A stretch of 64,000 nucleotides of DNA from an uncultured Clostridia bacterium (GCA_947628205.1 CANQYX010000003.1:665-64664), one strand, 5' to 3'. Numbered from the stretch's first letter, positions 5,951 to 51,800 are shown. Notes: a model not told the origin generated them from the letters alone. A program made the numbers and translations.

Positions 5951-7906
5951 TTATTTTTTGTACACAGTGTAATCTTTCCCATTAATACTTTCAGTTGTAA
6001 TAGTTGGGAAATTGGTTTTGTTAATATATGCATGCCCATTTTCTGCGTAGTCATCAGGGTCAGTTGGGATAAGGCTGGTCAACACCCTAATCGTTTTGGC
6101 ATAATTTAATAATTCTTCACACGCCGATCTACTTGTTGCTTCGGTGTAAACATATTCGCTTTCAATTGTAACTTCTGTCAATTTGCTACAACTATTGAAT
6201 GCTCGAAACCCTATATTTGTTACACTGCTAGGAATTGTTACACTTGTTAATCCGCTACATAAAGAAAATGCATAATTTCTTATGTTTGTTACTCCTTGTT
6301 CAATGGTTAAGCCACCATTAAATCCACTGCATTTCTGGAATGCACGATAACCAATAAATGATACACTGCCTGGGATGACCAAATTTCCTGTAAATCCGCT
6401 ACAATTCTCGAATGCACCGTCCCCTATACTTGCTACTCCTTGTGGGATAATTAAGTTTCCGTTAAATCCGCCGCAATTATAGAATGCATTGCTCCCAATA
6501 CTTGTTACACCGCTTGGGATTGTTAAATTTCCTGTAAATCCGCTGCAATCCTCGAATGTTTTATCCCCTATACTTGTTACTCCTTGTGGGATAGTTAAGT
6601 TTCCGTTAAATCCACTACACCCGTCGAATGCACACTTCCCTATACTTTCTACACCGCTTGGGATGGTTAAATCCCCTGTTAATCCGCTACAACTCTGGAA
6701 TGCACCTTCCCCTATATTTGTTACACCGCTTGGGATGGTTATGCTTGTTAATCCTGTGCAGTAAAAGAATGCACTGTTCCCTATATTTATTACACCGCTT
6801 GGGATGGTTATGCTGGTTAATCCTGTGCAGTAAAAGAATGCATTGTTCCCTATATTTATTACACCGCTTGGGATGGTTATGCTGGTTAATCCTGTGCAGA
6901 AATAGAATCCAAGCTTTCCTATGCTTGTACCACCTGTTATTATTACATTTGTTAGTGTTGTGGGTAGGCTAGAATTTTGACTAGTATCTGAAGTTGCGCC
7001 AAAAATATAGCCAAAACATGTTTGGGGGGTTTTTGTTGCCTCTTTAGTTGCCCCAACAAATGGAATAGAAATATATTTTAAGCTTGTGCAATTTTTGTTT
7101 AGCGCGCCTTGCTCTATTTCGGTTACACTATCAGGAATTGTTATTTCGATTAATGTGGATTGGTCTATAATAGCATTTTTTGCAATTTTTGTAATAGGAG
7201 TGCCATCTATTTCAGATGGGATGTGAAGCACAGATAAGTTATTGTTTTTAAGTTTGGTTATTGTGCCTGCGCCATCAAACTCTAAGTCAGATGAATAATC
7301 TTTTCCGTCTAGGTTAAATTGGAATAAACCTGAGTATTTAGCATCACTTGCTATATCCCTAATTTTGGCTAGGATATACACATATTTTGTTTTGTTAGCT
7401 GAGATTGTGGTGGTTGTCCAATCGCCAAAATGAGTGTTAATATTTTCATTGAATTCTGAAGCTATTTCTTCATCCGAATTTAAACAAAATACCGAAATGT
7501 TTGTGTCCTCTATTTCATTATCTTGATAGAATAAATCTATTGCATAATCTTTACCGCCAGAATTGGTGAACTTATATTCAAACACAACATAATCGTTTTC
7601 TGCTGTTAGTTGAATATCCTTATCTGTTGGGCTAAGTGATGCGTTTTGATTGGCTTCAAGGCCAAAAGTAAGTTTGGTAGCACCATTTGCTTCGCCACCC
7701 GTGGTCATATTATGCCACTCTTCACTGCCAACTTTCCAGCGTGCGGTTGCCTCACCACTAACTTCCATGCTGATGTAACGCACCCTTATGGAACTTGTTA
7801 ATTCTCGCCTTGTCGCTGCAAATACGGCAACAACGGCAACGACAGATAAAAACGCTAAGACAGTTGCCAAACTTATGGTTAATAAAATTTTCTTATTTGG
7901 GCTCAT
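5951..7906 (-). CDS. Cell-surface BspA-type leucine-rich-repeat (LRR_5-like) protein with an N-terminal hydrophobic anchor or signal
   Basis: 651 aa. N-terminus ILLTISLATVLAFLSVVAVVAVFA. About a dozen 23-aa repeats of the form C.GL..I.IP..V..IG..AF..C. AAGGAG lies 5 nt upstream of the ATG at 7906. Confidence 0.85.
   Translation of the reverse strand: MSPNKKILLTISLATVLAFLSVVAVVAVFAATRRELTSSIRVRYISMEVSGEATARWKVGSEEWHNMTTGGEANGATKLTFGLEANQNASLSPTDKDIQLTAENDYVVFEYKFTNSGGKDYAIDLFYQDNEIEDTNISVFCLNSDEEIASEFNENINTHFGDWTTTTISANKTKYVYILAKIRDIASDAKYSGLFQFNLDGKDYSSDLEFDGAGTITKLKNNNLSVLHIPSEIDGTPITKIAKNAIIDQSTLIEITIPDSVTEIEQGALNKNCTSLKYISIPFVGATKEATKTPQTCFGYIFGATSDTSQNSSLPTTLTNVIITGGTSIGKLGFYFCTGLTSITIPSGVINIGNNAFFYCTGLTSITIPSGVINIGNSAFFYCTGLTSITIPSGVTNIGEGAFQSCSGLTGDLTIPSGVESIGKCAFDGCSGFNGNLTIPQGVTSIGDKTFEDCSGFTGNLTIPSGVTSIGSNAFYNCGGFNGNLIIPQGVASIGDGAFENCSGFTGNLVIPGSVSFIGYRAFQKCSGFNGGLTIEQGVTNIRNYAFSLCSGLTSVTIPSSVTNIGFRAFNSCSKLTEVTIESEYVYTEATSRSACEELLNYAKTIRVLTSLIPTDPDDYAENGHAYINKTNFPTITTESINGKDYTVYKK
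6721..6899. repeat. 2.6 near-identical tandem copies of a 69-bp (23-codon) LRR unit inside the LRR gene
   Basis: TTACACCGCTTGGGATGG... recurs at 6721, 6790 and 6859, exactly 69 nt apart, with only a few substitutions. Confidence 0.9.
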
Positions 7907-19606: not shown

Positions 19607-19635
19607 TTTACTTTTTAACTAATTTATGTTATAAT
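19607..19635 (+). promoter_or_regulatory. Promoter of the riboswitch-led transcript
   Basis: TTTACT (19607-19612), 17 nt, TGtTATAAT (-10 at 19630-19635). The predicted TSS is about 19641-19643, at the first base of helix P1. Confidence 0.6.
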
Positions 19636-19640
19636 ATTAA

Positions 19641-19770
19641 CACCATATAGAGTGTGCGAGGGGCAAGCCTGATAACCACACAGCAACCTGCAATTAAGGT
19701 AAGGTGCTAATGCTTGATGGATGGTGTAATTTAAAATTTGTGCCATCCGTTGATGGCTATTTTTATTTTT
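19641..19770 (+). promoter_or_regulatory. Candidate transcription-terminating riboswitch, SAM-I clan (SAM-I/IV-like) core
   Basis: P1 CACCAU (19641-46) / AUGGUG (19721-26). P2 GUGUG (19652-56) / CACAC (19677-81). Conserved-looking strings GAGUG, GCAACC (19683-88) and AGGUGCUAA (19702-10). Terminator GCCAUC-cguu-GAUGGC (19742-57) plus a U-rich tail. The P1 3' strand GGAUGG can alternatively pair with CCAUCC as an anti-terminator. P3 is short, so the class assignment is tentative. Confidence 0.5.
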
Positions 19771-19781
19771 AGGAGGGAAAA

Positions 19782-20108
19782 ATGGAAGGGGACATTCGCG
19801 GAATTATGAATGTTTATTATGAAGATTACAACAGCGCAAACAAAGGCAATTATTCTAAACCATATTGTGTAAATTGCAAAACCTACAATTCTTCGCTAGA
19901 TTTTTTAAAATATTTAGAAGATTTGGGCTTTTTGGTTGTTGCTGGCCAGGCTCAGGGCTTCTGTGCTGTGCTTGTAAACCTTGAATTAAAGCGTTGCTCA
20001 GGCATACGATTAGCCTGCCATTACACAACGCCTGAAAAAGAATTGGATTACAACGATTTTAAACCTATTTTAGACAAATATTTAAAAAATCAAAATGTAA
20101 ATTTATAA
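19782..20108 (+). CDS. Hypothetical 108-aa protein downstream of the riboswitch candidate
   Basis: AGGAGG 6 nt upstream of the ATG. Contains CVNC and other Cys residues. No family recognised. Confidence 0.6.
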   Translation: MEGDIRGIMNVYYEDYNSANKGNYSKPYCVNCKTYNSSLDFLKYLEDLGFLVVAGQAQGFCAVLVNLELKRCSGIRLACHYTTPEKELDYNDFKPILDKYLKNQNVNL

Positions 20109-20247
20109 CATAATGGCCTTTCAAACTTTTCAACAATTAAAAAATATTTACCTGTCATAATTTTTGCTTATGGATAATAAATTTTAAGCCGATTTAAAAT
20201 TTTTAATTAAACATTAATTATATTTTTAAAAAATTTTTATTTTTAGG

Positions 20248-20276
20248 TTGACAAGTTGAAAATTATTTGCTATAAT
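20248..20276 (+). promoter_or_regulatory. Consensus promoter for tRNA-Ser
   Basis: TTGACA (20248-53), 17 nt, TATAAT (20271-76). The leader is about 70 nt and contains the hairpin GTTGGC-taaaat-GCCAAC. Confidence 0.75.
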
Positions 20277-20350
20277 CAGTTTGTTCGTTTTGATGTTGGC
20301 TAAAATGCCAAACAACCAATCCAAAACTAATTAATTTTAAACTTCGATAT

Positions 20351-20442
20351 GGAGAGTTACTCAAGAGGTCGAAGAGGCGTCCCTGCTAAGGATGTAGGCG
20401 TCTAATAGGCGCGCGAGGGTTCGACTCCCTCACTCTCCGCCA
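20351..20442 (+). tRNA. tRNA-Ser (anticodon GCU), class II with long variable arm, CCA encoded
   Basis: Acceptor GGAGAGU/ACUCUCC, anticodon loop CUGCUAA, T-arm GAGGG-UUCGACU-CCCUC, terminal GCCA. Confidence 0.95.
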
Positions 20443-20537: not shown

Positions 20538-23480
20538 TTAATCATTAACATGATTTATCCACGCACCGTTATACACTTTTAGCGAATTTGCACCATCGCT
20601 AGCTGTTAAAATATCTGGCGTGCGGCCAATTTGAGAATTGTTTGCAAGCCATCTTGATTGCGCTGCATCAACAAAGGTTGCAGAAACCAAATTGCATCCA
20701 TTAAACGCCAACGCGCCTATATAGCGCAAGGAAGAAGGAAGAGTTATATTTTTTAATGCTGTGCGCCCATCAAAAGCTTTTGAACAAATGACACGTGTGC
20801 CATCTAATATAGTGTAAGTTTCGTAATTAAAATCAGCATTTGTTGCAATTAAATAATGCGTAGAATTATCTTTTGAGTGCAAATATAAAATTCCGTTATA
20901 TGTTTCGCTTTGATTAGATTTCCAGTTTTCATCATCTAAATAGAACTTTGTGCCAAAGAAAGCGTTGTCACCAATAAAATTAATTTTGTTGCCAACTTTA
21001 ATTGTTGCAAGGTTTGAACACCCATTAAACGCATTTGCGCCTATGCTGGTTACACTGTCTGGCAATGTTACAGAAACAAGGTTTGTATCGTCTCTAAATG
21101 TGCCGGCAGGAATTGAACTAAAGGTGTAATCCGACAAATCTAAATTGGTGTTAGGTTGTTCTGTTTTGTCTGTAATATGGAAACTAACCCCTTCTTTAAG
21201 CGGGCTGGCTTCATCGTTCATAAAATTAATTGCAAGCCACTCTTTAACCGTGCCAGTAAACTCAACTTTTTTCAACGCTGGGCAATTTTTAAACGCATCG
21301 TTGAAAACTTCTTTTATTGTATTAACTAATTTAACCTCAATTAAATTTGTGCAGTTTTCAAAAGCTGATTCTGCAATTCCAACCGTATTTTCTTTAACCG
21401 AGAAAGTTGCAACGCTTTCGTCAACTTTTAACAAATGATTAGCAAGATACAACGCGGTTGAGTTATCTACCCAATTTGATTTATCCAAAACATAATCGGT
21501 GTTTTTAAAAGCGAATGGTCCAACATAGTCAATTTCACCACAGGTTATTGAGCTAAGATTAATGCAATTGCCAAATGCGTATGTCTCCACCCTTTTAATA
21601 CTTTCGGACAAGGTTACGCTTGTTAAATTTTTGATGTCCATAAAAGCATACTCTCTGATTGTGGTAATGCTTGTGCCTTGAATAATTAAGGTTTGAACAC
21701 CGGCATCGTGAGTTGAAAAGGCATAACGGTTAATTTCTTTAACAGGTTTTCCGTTGTAGCTGCCAGAAATGATTATCTTTTTAGAATTTGAACATTGACC
21801 AAAAGCTTTACGATAAGTAGTAAGCCCATTGTATTGAACTTTTTCGCCCAATACGTAATAACTATCTGGGCTGTCAGCATCTCCAATTAAAGTATATTTT
21901 AAGCCATCTGCCTGACACTTTGAACATATATTGGACTCAACAAAATCGTGCGCTTCAATTAATTTTTCCGAGCAATCTTCGTTTTGACATTCTTTATAAC
22001 ACTTTGTATCGTCCTCGGCAACAGGTTTCCAAGCCGACCAGAAATGTTCGTTTTTATCCAGTTCAACAATTTTTTCATAATCGCAGTACGCTTCTTCGCA
22101 ATATGTTTTTATGTAACCCTTTTCCCTACAGGTTGGATCTTTACTTTCTTGTTTAAAAGTGTGTTTATATTTATCTTCTTCTCCGCAAACAGTGCAGGTT
22201 TTAAAATGATTTTCGTCATCCTTTTGCCAGTTTTCGCCCCACTTATGCCCTTCATGATTCAAAGTTTCGTAAGATTTTTGATTTTTGCAAACACGACATC
22301 TAACAATTTTGTATCCATCAACTAAGCATGTTGCATTTTGTTGTTCAATTTCAGTGTTGTCGCATGCCTCAATCAATTCATCGCCGCAACTGCTGCAAAC
22401 TTTTTTATGTTTGCCCTCTAAATAAGAATCATCCGTGCCGTCATATTGCCAATCTTGATAACTGTGGCCGAAATGTTCGGTTTCGTCTGTTTTGTAACTA
22501 AATCCACAATCTTTGCATTTATGCTCAACATAACCATCGATTGTGCACGTTGCATTTACAACATGAATTTCAAAATGACAATTGCTTTCTTCAACGTGTG
22601 TAGGGTCATTTTTGCAAACTCTACGATGACGATTGTTGGTTGGGTCGTTATCGTAATCTTCAATCGGTTCGTAAGGCGAACTTTCATAATCGTGACCGGT
22701 TGCATCGTGGAAATCGCTGTCTTGATAGTTATCGCAATGTTCGCACCATTTTCTTGTGTAACCGGAGCTTTCGCAACCAGCTTCCACAATTTGAGTGTCG
22801 CGATTAAACACGCACGCTTCCTTGTTTTCTAAATCGAGAGCCTCACATTTGGCGCATTGTTTTGCGTGGAAATCTGTGCCCTCCAACCTAACATAAACAT
22901 CATTAAATTGATGCGGTTTAATTGGGTCGATTACATCCACTTCGTGGTTGCAGGCATCGCATTTAAAACGAACATACCCTTCCGAAGTGCATGTTGCTAA
23001 TTTATGGTCAATTTCATGATAAACGCATGGCTCAATTTTAACATCAGATTCGTCGTTGCGGCAATAGCAACTATGCTGATCGTTATTGTGATTACCATCG
23101 CTATCTTCAACATGTTTCCAATCGGTATAATCATGCCCGAGCGCAGGGATTACATGGTGAGTTTCTTGTTCAGAACATCTTGTGCATATTCTATCCTCAA
23201 GGCCTTCCTCTTCACAACTGGCAGGTTTAGTAACATGTTCCTCCCACTCGTGCCCCAGCGCGTTTAAAACAATTGTAACACTATGCCCGCACGAACACTC
23301 GCCAAGTTGCGTGCCAGTTTCAGTGCAAGTTGGATTTTGCGTTATAATATAGCTATAAACATGCTCATGTTGCACAGAATTATCATCTCCGCATGCGGAC
23401 AAAACCGAGCCAACGCCCAAAATGCATGCAAAGAATAAAATTGCAACAAAAATTTTGTTAAATTTATGTAAATTTTTCAT
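20538..23480 (-). CDS. Surface lipoprotein: Cys-rich repeat modules plus C-terminal BspA-type LRR region
   Basis: Start set at ATG 23480 (GGAGG upstream). Signal and lipobox MKNLHKFNKIFVAILFFACILGVGSVLSAC. About 9-10 modules of the form TC..(E/D)G.....C..C...(10-15)...GH. The C-terminal half has IP..V..IG..AF..C LRR units. Confidence 0.8.
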   Translation of the reverse strand: MKNLHKFNKIFVAILFFACILGVGSVLSACGDDNSVQHEHVYSYIITQNPTCTETGTQLGECSCGHSVTIVLNALGHEWEEHVTKPASCEEEGLEDRICTRCSEQETHHVIPALGHDYTDWKHVEDSDGNHNNDQHSCYCRNDESDVKIEPCVYHEIDHKLATCTSEGYVRFKCDACNHEVDVIDPIKPHQFNDVYVRLEGTDFHAKQCAKCEALDLENKEACVFNRDTQIVEAGCESSGYTRKWCEHCDNYQDSDFHDATGHDYESSPYEPIEDYDNDPTNNRHRRVCKNDPTHVEESNCHFEIHVVNATCTIDGYVEHKCKDCGFSYKTDETEHFGHSYQDWQYDGTDDSYLEGKHKKVCSSCGDELIEACDNTEIEQQNATCLVDGYKIVRCRVCKNQKSYETLNHEGHKWGENWQKDDENHFKTCTVCGEEDKYKHTFKQESKDPTCREKGYIKTYCEEAYCDYEKIVELDKNEHFWSAWKPVAEDDTKCYKECQNEDCSEKLIEAHDFVESNICSKCQADGLKYTLIGDADSPDSYYVLGEKVQYNGLTTYRKAFGQCSNSKKIIISGSYNGKPVKEINRYAFSTHDAGVQTLIIQGTSITTIREYAFMDIKNLTSVTLSESIKRVETYAFGNCINLSSITCGEIDYVGPFAFKNTDYVLDKSNWVDNSTALYLANHLLKVDESVATFSVKENTVGIAESAFENCTNLIEVKLVNTIKEVFNDAFKNCPALKKVEFTGTVKEWLAINFMNDEASPLKEGVSFHITDKTEQPNTNLDLSDYTFSSIPAGTFRDDTNLVSVTLPDSVTSIGANAFNGCSNLATIKVGNKINFIGDNAFFGTKFYLDDENWKSNQSETYNGILYLHSKDNSTHYLIATNADFNYETYTILDGTRVICSKAFDGRTALKNITLPSSLRYIGALAFNGCNLVSATFVDAAQSRWLANNSQIGRTPDILTASDGANSLKVYNGAWINHVND

Positions 23481-23505
23481 TTTGCCTCCACAATTTCTTG
23501 AACTG

Positions 23506-23534
23506 ATTTTAACAAACATTAGTTTATAAGTCAA
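23506..23534 (-). promoter_or_regulatory. Promoter of the lipoprotein gene
   Basis: TTGACT (23534-29), 17 nt, TAAAAT (23511-06). Confidence 0.6.
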
Positions 23535-23650: not shown

Positions 23651-24106
23651 ATGGAAAACGATTTTAAAATTTTGTCTAATCTCTCTCCTGCTGCTTATGC
23701 CAATATAAAAGGAAATGACGACTATCCCGAAATTAATGGTGTTGTGCAATTTTTTAATTTAGGCAATGGGATTGTTGTGTATGCCGATGTTGAAAATTTG
23801 CCAAAAACCGAAACTAACATTTTTGCCTTCCACATTCATGAGGGTGAAAGTTGCGAAGACAATTTAACCCTCACTGGCGGACATTTTAATCCAACAAATC
23901 AGCCGCACCCAAACCATGCAGGAGATATGCCGCCCTTATTTTCAAATAACGGCAGCGCTTGGTTTGCGTTTTACACTGAACGCTTTAATTTAGACGAAGT
24001 TATTGGAAAAACGGTTATAATTCATGATTCACCAGACGATTTTACAAGTCAACCCTCGGGCAACAGTGGCGAAAAAATTGCATGCGGAATTATAAAAAAA
24101 CTATAA
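23651..24106 (+). CDS. sodC: Cu/Zn superoxide dismutase family protein without a signal peptide
   Basis: 151 aa. FHIHEGESC, GGHFNP, HPNHAGDMPPL and VIIHDSPDD match the SodC metal-ligand regions. Confidence 0.8.
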   Translation: MENDFKILSNLSPAAYANIKGNDDYPEINGVVQFFNLGNGIVVYADVENLPKTETNIFAFHIHEGESCEDNLTLTGGHFNPTNQPHPNHAGDMPPLFSNNGSAWFAFYTERFNLDEVIGKTVIIHDSPDDFTSQPSGNSGEKIACGIIKKL

Positions 24107-42835: not shown

Positions 42836-42863
42836 ATTTTATCATAAATTTTAAATTTGTCAA
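42836..42863 (-). promoter_or_regulatory. queH promoter; -10 ends 7 nt before ATG (leaderless-type); -35 overlaps the stop codon of the giant gene
   Basis: TTGACA (42863-58), 16 nt, TGaTAAAAT (-10 at 42841-36), AAATTTT, ATG at 42828. The TGA of the 3702-codon ORF is at 42862-42860. Confidence 0.6.
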
Positions 42864-45800
42864 GCCAAAATAAATTTATAAGTTATATTGTTGTTATCGT
42901 TAAGTTTAAAGTTTACTTCAACATAGTTATCCACAAATTCAACCAGCAAAATTTGGTCGGCATCCTTAAAATGTGCCTCATTTTTTGTTGTTATTTCGCT
43001 AACGTTTGGAATAAACGAGTAATTAAATTCAACGCCCAAACTATCGCTAACATCTTCTAGCAAATAAAGTTTACACTCTTGGGCTGACTGTACAGTTGTT
43101 TTAAATTTAACTTCGTTAGATTTTTCAAGGTCTTCGCCGAACTCAACTGTGTAGAGTTTCAACTCGACAATTTGTTCGTTTGTTAAAATGCACATTTGAG
43201 TTGTGTAGCTATCTCGCGCCCAACTGTCTAGCGAACCTAAATTTGCGCCCACAACGTACATAACATATGTGCCAGAAATGCCAGAAATTGTGTTAATAAC
43301 GTTTGCAAATGGTGTGTTGTATTTTATGCCTTCTGGCAGATTTGCATTTGCCACCATGCCCACAGTGTCAATGTCGAAATCGCCATTAAAGGTTATTTGT
43401 TTATTTGCTGCATCGTAGCCATATTTTGAAACAATTTGTTCGTTGTTATATTTCGTGTTCAACTCAAAATTTGCTTGAATTGTGCCAACTGCAAGCCCCA
43501 ACACTTTGCGATACAAAATTGCATCAATCAAACTTGGCCTGCCTGCGCGATATGAATAGAACGAACTTAAATTTTCTAGCCAATAATTTAAACTATCAAT
43601 CGACAGGCTAACATTGTCAATGTATTGAATTTCTGCCTCGTCAAAATATTTTACATCGTTAGGAACAACATAATCGCTTGCGCAAGCATAATTCAACGAG
43701 CCAATTGCCGAAGATGGCATTGTAAACACATCTTTATCTAAAATTGTGCCAACAACGCCGCCCGTATATAGCCCAAGCAGTTTGCCAGAGAATTTTGAAT
43801 TTTTAATATATCCATTAACGCTTCTGCCAACAAGTCCGCCCACAGTTGTGTTAACCACGTTGGAAACATTAACAATATTAAGTTCGGCCGAACAATTTGT
43901 AATTAATCCACCAAGATTTAGGCCAACCAACCCTGCGCAAACGCGCGAATTGCCAAAGATATTTTCCACCTCATTTGCAACTGTAATGCTGCTATCTGCA
44001 ATTATACCGCGATTTTCGCCAATCAAGCCAGCCGCATAATATTGCCCCACAATATTGCAATTTTCAATTTGAACATTGCAGTTGGAAATTTTAACCCTTT
44101 CCCCAACAAAGCCAAACAACGTGCCAACAATGTCGCCTATAACCGTTAGGTTTGAATTAACAGTTATATTTTTAACATTCATATACATATTGTTCAAATA
44201 TCTGGTGTCGTTTATGTTGTAACTTGAATTTAAATATCCATCTAAAATTCCTACCACGCTTCCTGCATAATGGACATCTGATAGGTTGTAATTTATATCA
44301 AAATTATTGTTGCGTGACATGTAGATTGAATAACTAGAACCCGATTTGCTTTCCGCGTTAACATTTGCGCTTGACGTAATGCCATCCAAATCAAAGTTGC
44401 CGCGAACAATACCTGCCAAACCACCAACCGCATTAGAGCCAATTAAAACATTATCTTGCGAAGAAACTTCTATATTGTAAATTTTATAATTTTCAATTAT
44501 GCCAGCCAAAATGCCCACCGCTTGGGTGTGAGATGCGGTAAACCTTGTTGTGTTCAATCTTAAATTTGCCACAACAGGTTGCACTGTGATATCCGAAGTT
44601 GCAACAAGCTCTTTAAACAGGCCTATTGAATTGAGGTTGTTAGACGAAGAAATCATAATATTATCAATAAGCATATTGTTGCCTTGAAGGTTGCCGCTAA
44701 ATGTTCTTGTGCTGGTTGAAGGGTTGTCAATAACCGAACTAAAGTCAAGGTCGGTAACCAATCTAAAGTATTTTGAAGTGTTGTCGGATAAATAGTAATC
44801 CCATGTTGCAATGTTATATAAAATTATTGGATTTGTGCTTGTTCCATACCCGTTATCCAAAAGGACATAATGATATGTGGTTATAATTTGATTGTCCACT
44901 TCAACTTTCGATTCTTCCCTACGGATTGTTCTCAACCCGTAGAACATTGATTCGGTGGATTGACGAACTGTGTCCACCCTCACTTTGTTTTCAACCGATG
45001 TTAAGTGAGGCAATTCTCCGTTCAAAATCTGCCAACTGCCAGTTTCGTTATCCCCAAACATAAATTTGTTATAGGACGATTGTAAAAATCTGTTTTGCAC
45101 TGACACATAATCCACGCCTTCCACCTTATGATTTCTTAAATATTGGTCTTCCCCATAAGGCAAAGAGGAAAGGTCTATAATTTCATAAGAATTTGTTATG
45201 CCGGATGATATGTTGTCGTTCTTAGTTGTAAATTGTGTGCAAGCGGCACGGCTTGAAATAATGCCTTTATTAACATAGGTATAGCACAAATTGATTGTTC
45301 CTGAATTTGTGTCTACAAAACCGGCAAAATTGCTGTTAGTGCCAAACACGGCGTAATTGGTGTAGCAATTGAAAATATTGCCTCGATTAGAGTAAACAAA
45401 CCCACCAACTCTTCCATTTTGCGCAGTTATGTTACTGCTTTGTTGATCTCCCGACAAAGCGCGCCCACCAGCAAGCACATTGCACATTGAAATTTCATTA
45501 ATGTTGGAGTTAAGCCCATCTCCGCCATTAAACACCACAAGTCCGCCAACATACACGGTTGCGCTTGTTTCGTAGGCAAAAATAAATCCGCTGTCGTTTA
45601 TATTAATATGTTCTATGCCATTGCTGTTTTTTGTGCTGTAGAACACTTCTCTATCATTTAAGAAGAAATTTTCATTTTCGGCAAGATAAGAGCAAGAAAC
45701 AATTTTGCCACCATTTGTGTGCACCAAGCCCCCAATATTTGCTCTGCCCACCATTGCCAGCGAGGAATCGCTATGGGTAATATACCCTTGATTTGTGCAA

Positions 45801-48800
45801 ACAAGGCCGCCCATGTTGAAATTTGCTGTGCGTTGGTTTTCAATTGCCGAAACGCGCAAAGCAACGCTGCCACGTACTTGACAATTGGTTATAATGCCCT
45901 CATTTTCCGGTGTGATGCCACCAAAAGAGGCCGATCTATATTCAATTTGGTCGTTAGCACACAAATCTTTAAATATGGAAGAACTTGGGTTCTGTGCGTC
46001 AATTCTGCCAAGAGAATATTCATCGTTAGAAAAGTATATTACTTCCAGGTTAGAAACAACCATGTTTGCATAAATTCTTCTAAACAGGCCTATATATATG
46101 TTGCCATTTTCCGTGTTATCGAACGGAGCAAAACTTTTAATTATAATTTTTCTGCCATTTCCGTCAAACGAAGCGATGTTTACATCTATTGGCACATAAT
46201 TTTCAAGCACCAAATCGTTGCCCAAAATATAGTTCCTTTCTGGAAGGCTAACCATGTTGATAAAATCTTCTTCATCTTTAACAACTTCTGGCTCTAAAAA
46301 CGATGTGGAATTTGCAAAATTTAAAACATATTTATAATTGAATTGCAATTCTGTTTCGCTTTCACTAAATGGCTTAATTTCCCACAAACCATCATCATTT
46401 AACGCCAAGTTAAATTGAAGTTGAAGAACAAGGTTGTTATCATCGTTAGAGTTAACAAGCAAATGAACTTTATGATTCATATCATCAAAAGTCAAGGTCG
46501 CAATTGAACTATCCGTTAACAAATTAAATTTGCCATCTACCATTTTTCCAAGTGAAAGATATTCAAGGGTGTTAATTTCACCCAAAATTGTGTGAATCGA
46601 TTTTAATTGGTCGCTAGCATTGCCTGTTAAAACATTTGGGTTATAAATATATTGACTATCCCAATAAGTGCCATTAGTTTCTAAATAACTTATATCAAAA
46701 TTATTTAAATAGAAATTCAAAACTGTTGGCACGCCAAAATCGCCATTTAAAACACGCTTAGTTTCGCTTTCGGTTTGCCCAAAATTTACTTGGCTATTGT
46801 TAACGCTGACATTATGAATTACATATTGCACAATTTTAAACTGCAAACTTGTTGTTGCGTTTTCAAATGTGCCATCATTTAATGTTAATGTTGTGGTGGC
46901 GGTTAAAGTGAACATCTTGTTTAGCAAATCTTCGCTATATCTGCCCACCAAAACATAATTAGAATTGTTGGTTTGTATTTCAAAATAGTTGTTAAAATCT
47001 AATTCCTGCCCATCAAAACTTCCGCTAAAAATTACATTGCCATTAGAGTTGCGCGTTGTAACAGCCAAATTTGCAGGAACGCCATTTGCTAAATACAAAA
47101 TTCCGCTTGCATTGTCATAATGCACCCCTTGTGGGTTAACATATTCCATTTCAATTTCAGGAAGCATTTTAATATCTATAACAATGCTGTTTGAAGTTAT
47201 TAAATTGCCAAATTTATCGTAAGCAGAAACGCGAACTGTGTGAAGTTTAGAACTTGCGCGAATGTCGATTAGAGTTGAAACATAAGTTGCCCTTTGATTA
47301 GGAATTTTGTTTAATCTTATGCCCTTGCCGTTTGATGTTTCAACATCCATTGTTTCCAACGGCTTGCCATTAATGCCGTCAATTTGTGTAAATATTATAT
47401 TTTCATTGCCCGATTCGTTCAAATCTTCAATTTCCAAATAGCCATAATAACTATTTGCAGGCGAAAGGTTAATTATAATCAATCCGCCACCAACTGGGCG
47501 CAACATATCGCTTGGCTCAATAACAGCAACCCCGTTGTCTGTTTGAACGTGGCCATCTTCATCATATTTATAGATATAATTATTTATTTCGATGTTATCT
47601 ATGCGCTGCGGAACTAAAATAAACGAAATGCTTTCGCCATCATATCCATTTGGCAGTTCAAAGAAAATGGTTAGTTCGGTTTCGTCTTGAACTTCAAGCT
47701 TTTCGTTGAATTTAACCAAATATTTAACAATTTGTTGGTTATTGTCAAAGTTGTTGGCTTTATATTCGATGAACTGTGCAATATCTTCAACATATCTGCC
47801 ATCAAAAATTATGCCATTAACAAGATTTAATGTTTCAAGCTCCTCTTCGCTAAACGGTAAATCGGTTGTAACATAAGCATAAACATCGGCCGTGCCATTA
47901 GGATAAATTATTATCTGGGTGCTGCTTAACTTAATTTCGGTTGGGCCTTGATATGTGTTAAGGTTGAAATTAAAGGTTTGGTCATCTTCGCCAGATTTTT
48001 CAAAAATATCATAACTTGTGCCGCCATAATTTATCTTTGTAAATCGCTTAATTGCAAATTGCAGCACTCTATCTTGCAAATGATTTTTAACCGATATGCT
48101 AAACGCGGTAAGTGGGTCTAACACAACTTTTAATTCAGTTGCCGAATCTACAACTGGCTGAACACCGCTTATTGAAATGTATTTGCCAATTGTGCCTTCA
48201 ATTTGTAAGCCATCCTTTATTGTAACATCAACCTCTAAATAAAGGTCGCTTGTGGTTTTATATTCATAGTCCACACCCAAATAATTTAAACTATTTGAAG
48301 CGACTGAATAATATTCTTTTGTTTTGCCCTTAGCAATTTGTTGCGTGGTGTTTAAAATTGAAGATTTTTCATCTGCCTTACTAGTGCTTAAAACAAAATT
48401 TTCGCCAACCGGTGCAGAAATTATAACATCAACCACGCACCTAACATTATGGTTGAGCGCAGAATAGAACGTAAGTTTGCATTCGCCCAAGCCATTAACC
48501 AACAAATAGTTGCCAGAAACGGATAGAATTGCGCTATCGCTTTCCGCAATAATGCGTATTGTGCCCAAAATGGTTGGTTCAACATCTATGTTGATTAAGT
48601 CCTTTTCGTTATCGTTTGACAATATTCTATATCTATTAAATTTATTGTTAAGTGTGGTTAAAGTGTTTTGATAATTTTCGTTGGTTGAATCTAAAACAAA
48701 ATCGTAATAATATAAGCGCATTAAATATGGTGCATCATCTAAAATTGGGTTTATAACGGTTGAATCAATTTTTGTTGGGCTTTGTTCAAAAATAGGGTTT

Positions 48801-51800
48801 GTGCCATCCAACGTAATAAAGATATAGCCACCATTTAAATTGCTTGCAACTGCCCAATGGTCTTTTGCCGTGTGCAAATCAAACGATTCTGTATTGGCGT
48901 TTGAATAATCGTATTCCTCTAGTTTGCCATTAACAACATTAATTGAATATACATAGTTATATATAGCATTTTTGTCTGCAATTGCCAAGTTGTCTAAAGT
49001 GTCATTTTTTAAATCTAAATCAACTAGAACGCCATCTTGAACTGTTACAATTTTGCCCATGAAATAGGAATTATATATAATCGAGTGGGTGTCCGGGTCA
49101 TTTGCGTTAAAGATGCCATAAACCTTGCCCTCAGTTTGCACGCCCACAAGCGCATTAACGCTGCTATACATAACAGTTGTTAGTGAGTTGTTGTTAGTGG
49201 TGTTATATATTTGTTTATTATTATCTAAATTGCCTAATGTGCTTTCGGTTAAACCAATTAATCCGCCAACATAATCGGCACCTACAATATCTGCATACTG
49301 GGCAGAATTAAAGGTTGAAGTGAGTTCGTTATAATCCCACCTATAACTCATAACAGAGCAATAAGCAAACGTGCCAAACTTAGAAAAGCCAGCAATTCCA
49401 CCAACATAATTTGTGCCTTTTATCGCAGCATCTGTTCCAGCAAGAATTTGAGCATGGCAGTTATAATAACTTCCGCCGTCATCATAACCCACAACGCCGC
49501 CGACATAATCTGCGCCCACAACTACAACAGATGATGTTAAATTTTGAATTTTATATTGTTGGGCAGTTTCAATTGCCTTAATTTCGTCTTGATTAGTAAT
49601 CGACAATTGCAACACGTTAGTTCTGTTTTTGCCAATAATTCCGCCAGCGATGCAATTTGCATTAATTTTTCCGGTTGCGTAAACATCTTTAACTTCGCCC
49701 GTGTTAACGCCAACAACTCCGCCAACCACGCTTGAGCTATCCATTAAATTAGCGGTTACATCCAAATTTGAAACCGCGCCACTATCGCCTAAAACCACGC
49801 TGAAAACGATGTTGCTGTTGGCCTGTTCGGCTTTTGAATAGTTGTTGTTTAACAGCGTTTTTTCCGTGCCATTATATCCTAAGATTGAGCTATTATTTTG
49901 CCCAACCAAGCCACCAAACGAAAGTTGACTGCCTAACAAAGTTATTTTTCCGCTAGTGCCAACAATTTCATTTGATGTGTAAGAGATTGTGCCACTATTT
50001 ACCGATGCCAGTGTGCCAAAATTCACCAATCCGCCCGACACATTTGCCTGCCCATCAACATTTAAAGATAGGTTGGTTAATTTGCCATAGTTGAAATCTA
50101 TAAGCCCTAAATTTTGTTTAGAGGAAGAATAAGCAAACATTATTTCAAAATTTAAGTTTACAAGCGTGCCGTTGAAATTTGTAAATAAATTTACAAAATC
50201 ATTGTTAAGTTCAATGCCTGAAATTGTGTAAACAACAGGAGTTTCAACAGGTGTTCCGTCAATTATTTCGGTGTAAGTATAGGTGTTAATTTCCCCTTTA
50301 AAATTGTCTATTGGCTGATGTTTTAAACTTGCGGTGTTAATGTTGATGTTGTCCATCAAAGTGTAATAATGGTTGTCGTTGCTTTTTATATCCCAAAAAT
50401 CTTCTGGGCTGTTAATTATAAACGGATTATCCTTGCTTCCGTTGGATAAAAACAATTCAATTTCTAAATAGGCATTTTCATGCCCCGCCATAAGCACCGA
50501 TCTTGGGCTGATAATTGAGCTATGTTCTTCAAGTTTTTCAATTAAAGCATCTTTGGCAAATATAATTAATTTGATATTTTTTGCCATATTTACAACAGAA
50601 AGATTGTTGCCTTCAATTGAAATTGCACTAGATTTATTGCCGGCATTATCCACAACCTGAAAAAGCAAATTGTCCGTTTTAAACGTTACATTTCCGCTGT
50701 TAGCCAAGGCATTTGCATTTACTGTTAGCTTGCCAGAATTTTCTTTAATGTCTATATAAAAACTTTGGTTTGCAACATTAATTTGAACAGCTCTTGTGTT
50801 GCCATCTTCTGTGGTTAAGTTCTGCACCTCCACTCTATCGGTTAAAATTGGGGTTGCAAGCCTGATTGTGCAGGTTTTTGAAATCGTTCGGTTAAATTGT
50901 TTAATTGTGGCAGAAATTTCCAAAGATTGTGCAACAAGTTCATCTCCCACAAGGTCAACTTTAATTTCGTAATCTTTTTGGTCTAAAAATTCATATATAT
51001 TAGCAACGCTTGTTGTCCAATTAACAGCATAATCATTTAAATTATTTTGCCCAAAAACCATTTGTTGTTGGCTGTTTTGAACATAATTTTTCAATTCATT
51101 AGCCAATTGCAGTTTTAAATTGATATTTGCCAAATCTTTATAATAAGCGCCTAATTTATTTTTAGAATATCTATAACCATCGGCTGGCACATTAGAGTCA
51201 ATTTGCATGTCGGAAGCAAAAATAGGTTCAAACACAAAGAAAGTTTTGCTTATAGAAATTTCGTTTTGCTCGTTTTCAACTTTAAACAACCTATCAAATT
51301 TACTTAATTTAACAACAAAATTAATGGTTATGTAATTTTTGCCATCAACATATGTGCCACGTTTAAAAATTAGGTCAACTGCATTAGCGTTTTTGCTATC
51401 CACGCTGTTTCGCTTTAAGGTTAAATACTCGTCAATATTTTCTCCCTGCCAAACGGTGGTGTAATCGTAAGAATTAACTATGTTTGACTTTAAAACCGCA
51501 TCATTTATAACAAACCAAAAATTATATCTGCGGTTGAACCCAGCATTGTTGTTTGAATTGTTTGTTGCAACAATGAAATCCGATTCATACCCTTCAAATA
51601 AAGATTCGTTTGCTTCAGTTTTTATATAGGCAAAATCGTTTAGCCCTTCTAAATTATATCCAATTTCTAATGTTTGTTCGGTTAATCCTTCGTAAACAAA
51701 AACTTTTATGTTTTTTTCGTAACCATTTTCGTGGCTAATTGTAATTCGATATTCGCCAACCTGTGTGCGCTCGCCCAAAATTAAGACAATTGAATTGTCC

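Follow-up and report, generated by a model that had tools for sequence, protein, structure and literature searches.

The closest described relatives of the element considered here are the SAM-I (S-box) riboswitches, whose Rfam alignment has deletion of helix P4 as its first principal component and contains some natural sequences with little or no P4 (2025 study, PMC12714719). The same study reports that aptamers for S-adenosylmethionine (SAM) can function without P4, that affinity drops as P4 shortens, and that a response to SAM is seen when designed P4-less SAM-I aptamers are probed chemically (PMC12714719). Because natural members with little or no P4 are held in the Rfam alignment, P4 is treated here as a usual feature of the family and not as a defining one. 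Among the related classes, SAM-IV replaces P4 by a hairpin located 3' of P1 together with a pseudoknot, PK-2, formed from the P3 loop; SAM-I/IV has the added hairpin and PK-2 as well and is in addition without the split P2 and PK-1 (PMC6890682). The present analysis concerns a leader and the gene for a 108-amino acid (aa) protein that follows it (19607-20108), located in a 64,000-nucleotide (nt) stretch of DNA from an uncultured Clostridia bacterium (GCA_947628205.1, CANQYX010000003.1:665-64664), hereafter the window, from the first letter of which all positions are counted. With a probability of roughly 0.85, we conclude that this leader is a SAM-I riboswitch of a compact, P4-less form which functions as a transcriptional OFF switch. 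The P4-less form is already known and widespread and is not a new class. An earlier reading of the locus from its sequence alone (the sequence-only reading) had held that either the aptamer class or the function of the gene must be new; the class is not, being RF00162, and the protein, as described below, is indeed recognised by no library.

Membership of the family and the architecture of the aptamer are established by the Rfam covariance model. The sequence-only reading had recognised features of the SAM-I clan and had named a covariance-model search as the means of verifying them; this search (cmscan) matches 19640-19727 to the SAM model (RF00162) with 47.5 bits, which exceeds the curated gathering score (44.4), and with an E value of 9e-8 over the whole 64-kb window; the match is the top one of its clan. 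In the resulting alignment P1, P2a, the internal loop, P2b, and P3 are all present, every upper-case core position is matched, and one nucleotide stands in place of the 18 model positions of P4. As only 4 nt separate the 3' strand of the pseudoknot from the 3' strand of P1, the aptamer is a three-way-junction version of SAM-I of approximately 88 nt. The class had originally been called with hesitation on account of a P3 of about 4 bp; the call was borne out as RF00162, and the real oddity is the absent P4 and not a short P3. Complete loss of P4 and an A for G at 19674 in the kink turn (k-turn) of P2 are two features absent from the sequence-only reading, and the promoter, aptamer, terminator, Shine-Dalgarno sequence (SD), and open reading frame (ORF) are all present where that reading had placed them. 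The features are as follows.

19607-19635, plus strand: sigma-70-type promoter with -35 TTTACT, a 17-nt spacer, and an extended -10 TGtTATAAT (10 of 12 matches plus the TG extension)
19607-19612, plus strand: -35 element TTTACT, read in the sequence
19627-19635, plus strand: extended -10 element TGtTATAAT, read in the sequence
19640-19727, plus strand: SAM-I (S-box, RF00162) aptamer, P4-less, 88 nt (cmscan, 47.5 bits against a gathering score of 44.4)
19640-19646, plus strand: P1 5' strand ACACCAU, which pairs with AUGGUGU at 19721-19727 (from the alignment; compensatory change in L129)
19652-19681, plus strand: whole of P2 (RF00162 alignment)
19652-19656 with 19677-19681, plus strand: P2a, GUGUG/CACAC (RF00162 alignment)
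19657-19659 and 19671-19676, plus strand: k-turn internal loop, CGA and GAUAAC (RF00162 alignment)
19660-19662 with 19668-19670, plus strand: P2b, GGG/CCU (RF00162 alignment)
19664-19668, plus strand: pseudoknot 5' strand CAAGC in the P2 loop, which pairs with GCUUG at 19712-19716 in J3/4 (read from the sequence)
19674, plus strand: k-turn position 1b, a non-standard A in place of the G usual in the family (column count G 118, A 3, T 2 of 123)
19682-19708, plus strand: P3, AGCA-A-CC-UGC / GUA-A-GG-UGCU, with loop AAUUAAG (RF00162 alignment)
19714-19753, plus strand: antiterminator, a 16-pair stem of strands 19714-19729 and 19738-19753 (minimum-free-energy fold of the whole leader)
19742-19770, plus strand: intrinsic terminator GCCAUC-CGUU-GAUGGC with U tract UAUUUUUAUUUUU (hairpin 19742-19757; conserved with compensatory changes)
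19771-19777, plus strand: SD, AGGAGGG, read in the sequence
19782-20108, plus strand: ORF of 108 aa with ATG at 19782, for a small alpha/beta protein whose family is unannotated

The strings GAGUG, GCAACC, and AGGUGCUAA are present in the aptamer, and the shorter P1 of the sequence-only reading, CACCAU (19641-19646) paired with AUGGUG (19721-19726), lies within the helix listed above. P3 carries the conserved strings GCAACC and GGUGCUAA, which line the SAM pocket in solved SAM-I structures (that of Montange and Batey 2006). Intact in the leader are the core strings AU..AGAG, GCAACC, and GGUGCUAA as well as the SAM-I pseudoknot, whose strands CAAGC and GCUUG are perfectly complementary. Specifically, the pocket nucleotides, which contact SAM in the 2006 crystal structure, comprise the A-U/U-A pairs at the top of P1, AGAG (J1/2), GCAACC and GGUGC (P3), and AA (J3/4); all are present, align to upper-case consensus positions, and are invariant in the 123 relatives described below. 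Since the SAM-I core is intact, SAM is the probable ligand.

Conservation and covariation of the helices, proposed in the sequence-only reading as a further check of P1 and P2, are apparent both in homologous leaders and in a wider set of aptamers, with compensatory changes in P1, P2, and P3. Firstly, RF00162 scores above its gathering value in every orthologous leader identified, namely those of L001 (55.2 bits), L002 (46.5 bits), L126 (51.1 bits), L129 (57.1 bits), and L132 (45.9 bits), and all contigs that extend upstream of a close relative of the gene carry the same leader. A non-syntenic homologue, L133, possesses an RF00162 leader at 52.6 bits; at L133-L135 the leader is present with a protein homologue of 27% identity in an unrelated context. 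Alignment of the five leaders reveals a compensatory change in P1 (ACACCAU/AUGGUGU versus AUACCAU/AUGGUAU in L129), covariation of the distal part of P3 (UGC/GCA, UGC/GUA, UGAC/GUUA), and a compensatory change in the terminator (GCCAUC/GAUGGC versus CCCAUC/GAUGGG in L129). The extended -10 promoter was likewise confirmed at 19627-19635, with both the -35 and the -10 hexamer invariant or nearly so across the five related leaders; promoter-like matches alone are not significant in number (8 found versus 5.6 expected). The transcription start is predicted at approximately 19641-19643, within the first bases of P1.

Secondly, a scan of 185,579 species genomes with one pattern that left no room for P4 returned at least 120 stretches, nearly all of which consist of the same compact aptamer followed by a terminator. 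The alignment of 123 aptamers and the counts of 111 downstream genes used throughout this work rest on the matches listed from this P4-less pattern scan and represent a pattern-biased sample. Carriers among the matches listed belong to the Clostridia, Erysipelotrichaceae, Acholeplasmatales, Anaeroplasmataceae, other Bacilli, Spirochaetales, and Elusimicrobia, and many are metagenome-assembled genomes (MAGs) from gut or rumen. Across the 123 aptamers, 92.8% of cells are paired, compared to 31-38% when the partners are slid, and the covariation score is 0.262 versus approximately 0.05 for slid partners, with 0 of 500 shuffles attaining 0.262. Compensatory double changes are observed at all 5 pairs of P2a (96.6% of cells paired), the middle pair of P2b is A-U in 61 sequences and G-C in 60, and 95.5% of P3 cells are paired. 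The inner four pairs of P1 are at least 99% paired, the 3' AUGG having been fixed by the search pattern, and the CAAG of the pseudoknot, which lay outside that pattern, is 99.8% paired to a pattern-fixed YUUG; being fixed in this way, the P1 core and the 3' strand of the pseudoknot are uninformative on covariation. A model built from the 123 aptamers (R1) scores the aptamer of the window at 91.1 bits. One Clostridia MAG (L084:3370-4408) contains two P4-less SAM-I aptamers approximately 950 nt apart on the same strand, each followed by a different unannotated ORF.

Downstream of the aptamer, a GC-rich hairpin with a U tract and an antiterminator that uses the 3' strand of P1 are both present, and the two are mutually exclusive. 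On its 5' side, the antiterminator is built from the pseudoknot strand at its 3' end, from J4/1, and from the 3' strand of P1, and this side sequesters the 5' arm of the terminator. Within this 16-pair stem lies the complementarity of GGAUGG (19719-19724) to CCAUCC (19743-19748) on which the sequence-only reading had based its OFF switch; this pairing and the terminator were both found, and the same logic is seen in relatives, with equivalent alternative pairings in the folds of L002, L126, L129, and L132. From J3/4 on, the antiterminator fold reaches -18.7 kcal/mol compared to -9.5 kcal/mol for the terminator region, which suggests that read-through would occur without ligand and that termination would need a ligand-stabilised P1. 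Such an arrangement points to an OFF logic of the classical S-box type. In the proposed mechanism, transcription would begin a few bases past the extended -10; with SAM bound, the helices P1, P2 (kinked), and P3 would lock together with the pseudoknot that joins the P2 loop to J3/4, AUGGUGU would be held in P1, and the GCCAUC/GAUGGC hairpin with its U tract would stop the polymerase before the gene. When SAM is scarce, the P1 3' strand and J4/1 would pair with the terminator 5' arm to form the antiterminator, and read-through into the 108-aa gene would follow. Among the matches listed, metK, a classic SAM-regulated gene, lies behind 22 of the 111 similar aptamers.

Several observations weigh against this reading. 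Firstly, folding energy alone does not distinguish the leader from shuffled sequences (z = -0.5 and +0.1). Unremarkable folding energies are common among pseudoknotted aptamers. Secondly, the window has one of the lowest RF00162 scores in the set of homologous leaders, ahead of L132 and L002 only, and the three differences of the window from its relatives are all pair-weakening changes of G/C to A/T, those other than 19674 turning G-C pairs into G.U pairs. Thirdly, the k-turn layout is present, with GAU-AA in the window and the standard GAU-GA in relatives; the bulged strand reads CCU-GAU-AA-C, compared to CCC-GAC-GA-A in the T. tengcongensis template (PMC3651934), and position 1b (19674) is A where 118 of the 123 relatives have G. 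In the four other exceptions to G at 1b, the P2 loop is built differently. Work on the T. tengcongensis SAM-I riboswitch has demonstrated that SAM binding was no longer detectable once the 1b.1n pair had been disrupted (A1nC or A1nU), G1bA not being among the mutants, and that changes at 2b.2n (e.g., A.A) and 3b.3n were rescued by tertiary contacts (PMC3651934). A sequencing error at 19674 is unlikely, because three further assemblies of the species contain the same leader, again matched by Rfam at an identical 47.5 bits. The A at this position may weaken the switch in this species.

The most probable alternative takes up the change at 19674: the leader could be SAM-I by descent and weakened or dead here, the change of G to A at 1b blocking both the kink and the pseudoknot such that the antiterminator wins and expression is approximately constitutive. 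In addition to the near-universal G at 1b, the critical role of the 1b.1n pair for SAM binding in the model riboswitch (PMC3651934), and the low Rfam score, this explanation draws upon the antiterminator being the minimum-free-energy fold and upon the species also being without the tandem paralogue that its relatives have kept. We nevertheless consider it unlikely, as the rest of the aptamer, the terminator, and the promoter are intact and near-identical to those of G-bearing relatives, and erosion would be expected after long disuse; tertiary contacts rescue other k-turn substitutions, for example A.A at 2b.2n (PMC3651934); and the same leader is found in four assemblies. A working SAM-I OFF switch is the reading that we prefer, and its natural G1b-to-A variant provides a test of how far tertiary contacts can rescue the k-turn in a minimal, P4-less SAM-I aptamer.

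A switch of ligand by the P4-less aptamer, for example to S-adenosylhomocysteine (SAH) or another SAM-related compound, is highly improbable. Variant subclasses with altered specificity do exist in other riboswitch classes and the cargo here is no methionine or SAM gene, yet the consensus core matches the SAM-I model throughout and is invariant in the 123 relatives, metK is the commonest annotated cargo of the same aptamer form among the matches listed, and the SAM response of designed P4-less SAM-I aptamers (PMC12714719) speaks for retention of the ligand. The SAM-IV and SAM-I/IV identities raised by the sequence-only reading were rejected, and we give them almost no credence: RF00162 is the best match in a clan whose core strings are common property, and the one other, lower-scoring clan match was suppressed by cmscan. 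An internal P4 is missing as in SAM-IV, but P3 loops in relatives are 4 nt long and variable (GAAC, AACG, AAAC, GUAU) and not of the PK-2 type, the sole hairpin downstream, 3' of P1, is the terminator, and P2 possesses both a SAM-I-type six-nucleotide internal loop and PK-1. Finally, that the ORF is not the regulated product, and that the leader of this monocistronic gene makes a small RNA or controls read-through into the tRNA-Ser gene 240 nt downstream on the same strand, is scarcely credible in view of the purifying selection on the ORF, its strong SD and confident fold, its homologues elsewhere behind the same riboswitch, and a perfect consensus promoter (20248-20276) that belongs to the tRNA gene itself.

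The gene behind the leader had been described as encoding an uncharacterised protein with a strong SD and no likeness to genes of methionine, cysteine, or SAM metabolism, and this description holds. Neither the protein nor its family gave anything above noise by sequence in Pfam, NCBIfam, PHROGs, PADLOC, or the PDB, the protein has very few close relatives among 5.8 billion proteins, and the ratio of nonsynonymous to synonymous substitution (dN/dS) is 0.17-0.27 against four orthologues. An AlphaFold2 model from a 27-sequence alignment (pLDDT 88.6, pTM 0.82) displays the topology beta-alpha-beta-beta-beta-beta-alpha; an earlier model, for which 6 sequences were aligned, was set aside as too poor (pLDDT 68.9). 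What the gene encodes is a genuine protein under selection, cytoplasmic, composed of a single alpha/beta domain and devoid of conserved catalytic residues. A Foldseek search with the confident model gave no significant match in the PDB (best E 1.5) and a best E of 0.07 in BFVD. Small phage proteins (Acinetobacter phage AB1 gp61, ORFs of Leuconostoc phage Ln-9) display a weak fold likeness, with TM scores of approximately 0.4-0.5 on the query and 0.5-0.75 on the target, at E 0.07 or worse and with no sequence similarity (PHROGs negative); as these proteins are themselves without known function, the resemblance adds nothing functional. Cysteines are present, as had been remarked; the five Cys are kept in the closest relatives only, Tyr or Phe taking their positions in the tandem paralogue and throughout the family, and the idea of a Cys or metal site was rejected. 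Because Cys residues are no feature of the family, neither a thiol nor a metal role is indicated.

The neighbourhood of the gene is conserved to varying degrees. The leader follows a YjzC gene in L001, L126, L129, and L132, the contig of L002 being too short to include an upstream gene, and the order AddAB-YjzC-riboswitch is kept in relatives down to 42% protein identity; one syntenic relative lies in assembly GCA_947630405.1. The full order AddAB-YjzC-leader-gene-tRNA-Ser is found only in the window, L003/L004, and L132. Immediately upstream in the window, the YjzC-like gene (53 aa, PF14168; 19317-19478) has its own terminator. The tRNA-Ser(GCU) unit (20248-20442) possesses a perfect consensus promoter composed of TTGACA, a 17-nt spacer, and TGcTATAAT (20248-20276), and this arrangement is conserved in relatives. 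Relatives also possess a second, overlapping paralogous gene (28% identity, no Cys; L001:835-1155, L126:743-1081, L132:4001-4639), which in L132 is fused to the first copy to yield a 212-aa protein; in the window (20109-20350) this tandem paralogue has been lost with no detectable remnant.

A fast-diverging, unannotated superfamily of small domains, to which the 108-aa protein belongs, recurs directly behind SAM-I riboswitches in many of the genomes sampled, among them MAGs of Clostridia, Erysipelotrichaceae, Acholeplasmatales, and other Bacilli, and it is the commonest gene class behind this aptamer form among the matches listed, a pattern-biased sample. The family of the window protein itself, for which a profile search of 1.84 billion cluster representatives gave 25 matches at E<1e-3, consists of proteins of approximately 100-110 aa with one invariant Asn (in LVNLELKR), a few conserved aromatics and Gly, and no catalytic-type residues. 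Survey of the first SD-preceded ORF behind each of 111 P4-less aptamers from the matches listed identified 22 metK, 6 PriA-like, and 4 energy-coupling factor (ECF) S-component genes, most others encoding proteins of 73-266 aa with no Pfam match. A hidden Markov model (HMM) of the window family matches seven of these 111 proteins at E<1e-3, all in the same register (helix ...L..eGF, strand vlVN, then ...eEF), and the iterated profile converges on 37 of the 111 first ORFs, compared to 22 for metK, while drawing in none of the Pfam-annotated proteins. As a control, the final profile was run against the window and 120 loci read in all six frames (2,191 stop-to-stop ORFs); it matched only the window gene, the downstream ORFs already assigned, a further ORF that abuts the L089 riboswitch, and an ORF of L007, and reversed sequences gave 0 matches. 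The L007 locus (L007:3618-5264), from a rabbit-gut 'uncultured Bacilli' MAG, contains a P4-less SAM-I riboswitch, metK, and then a superfamily member of 106 aa that starts 4 nt past the metK stop, and no other case of a member sharing an operon with a SAM gene was seen. A cultured carrier of a member is Blautia sp. HCP3S3_C4 (L029). Genes next downstream of the small ORFs are heterogeneous, and many units are monocistronic.

This wider grouping, and its tie to SAM, must be weighed against two contrary results. In hhalign, the widest link between the two largest subfamilies (A3 versus A4) has a probability of 8% and an E of 0.0043, which is only suggestive; the outermost links of the superfamily are consequently probable and not proven, and they depend upon the iterative profiles with their controls and not upon hhalign. 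In addition, no riboswitch is found at the family branches L130 and L131 or at L136-L149, the 14 metagenome loci retrieved with a narrower family alignment. As several branches are without a riboswitch, the family is not intrinsically tied to SAM. The riboswitch-less branches lie beside ADP-ribosylglycohydrolase/Macro, helix-turn-helix (HTH), or Fic/Doc-like genes, or are fused to BspA-type leucine-rich repeats (LRR). One such member (L136:138-2001), 163 aa long and extended at its C terminus, closely follows a Fic/Doc-like gene (motif GHYFADCNKR) in metagenome contigs, a setting that resembles a toxin-antitoxin or mobile element, and in P0024 (885 aa) the small domain of the family is fused to BspA-type LRR repeats. 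Proteins of the BspA-type LRR_5 family are also encoded in the window at 20538-23534 and 5951-7906 (minus strand), one of them convergent with the 108-aa gene and possessing a Cys/His-rich repeated N-terminal half; together with the P0024 fusion, this may either hint at a function or be coincidental.

As a riboswitch the element is ordinary, one more S-box that documents the P4-less form as common in bacterial genomes. The value of the locus lies in its cargo: the gene sits behind an element predicted to turn it on at low SAM. A metabolite riboswitch tells the condition under which a gene is needed, and here that predicted condition is attached to a whole unannotated superfamily, more frequent than metK behind this aptamer form among the matches listed. 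That the 108-aa protein and its large, fast-evolving superfamily, with single, tandem, and fused domains, represent a major and unrecognised branch of the SAM-I regulon is a tentative proposal, to which we would assign somewhat less than an even chance. In its rapid divergence, domain duplication, stand-alone cassettes, and occasional mobile contexts, the cargo is more like accessory or conflict-related small proteins than like enzymes of biosynthesis, and the one co-operon with metK is a hint of a connection with SAM synthetase. With low confidence, we suggest that the protein may be a non-enzymatic binding or regulatory module needed when SAM is low and not an enzyme of methionine or cysteine biosynthesis. 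If the proposal of a SAM-I regulon branch is true, the carrier genomes, many of them gut and rumen MAGs, would deploy a non-enzymatic module specifically at SAM scarcity, one which might modulate MetK or guard against under-methylation, as in self-restriction, and which would constitute a SAM-starvation response not described so far. A search of the literature found no description of the protein family, an absence that is no proof of novelty. The orphan family therefore poses a testable question, namely what a cell needs at SAM depletion besides methionine and SAM synthesis.

Several additional observations were made in the course of this work. Genes for PriA-like primosomal helicases lie directly behind P4-less SAM-I riboswitches in L014, L023, L041, L073, L077, L078, and L108, with 6 of the 111 cargo proteins matching Pfam PriA_3primeBD, in MAGs of Bacilli, Acholeplasmatales, and Anaeroplasmataceae; such cargo is unexpected for an S-box. 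Elsewhere in the window are found a giant ORF of 3,702 aa (42860-53968, minus strand), a Cu/Zn superoxide dismutase gene (23651-24106) in what is apparently a gut anaerobe, and a gene with a T5orf172/MUG113 (GIY-YIG-like) domain (1955-2692) that adjoins secA. The source DNA derives from a rabbit gut metagenome, its G+C content is approximately 29-40% in 4-kb windows, and its genes are of the Bacillota type.

Compared to the SAM-I riboswitches of B. subtilis yitJ and T. tengcongensis metF, the leader described here shares P1, P3, a P2 with the layout of a k-turn, and the pseudoknot linking the P2 loop to J3/4, as well as the AGAG, GCAACC, and GGUGCUAA core and the terminator/antiterminator OFF platform typical of the Bacillota. 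It differs in having no P4, in its three-way as opposed to four-way junction, in its length of approximately 88 nt as opposed to approximately 108 nt, in the A in place of G at k-turn position 1b, and in a cargo that is no methionine, cysteine, or SAM gene. SAM-IV (RF00634) and SAM-I/IV (RF01725) belong to the same clan and have the same ligand pocket, and SAM-IV is likewise without an internal P4. Also close in form are the P4-less SAM-I aptamers, both natural and designed, of PMC12714719 (which cites Trausch 2014 and Heppell 2011), in which, as here, P4 is gone and the core is intact. The single pseudoknot sequence common to the P4-less examples gathered here was imposed by the search pattern; and while the earlier study points to a group in the Actinomycetota (PMC12714719), those found here come from the Bacillota (Clostridia, Erysipelotrichaceae, Acholeplasmatales, and other Bacilli) and from Spirochaetales and Elusimicrobia MAGs.

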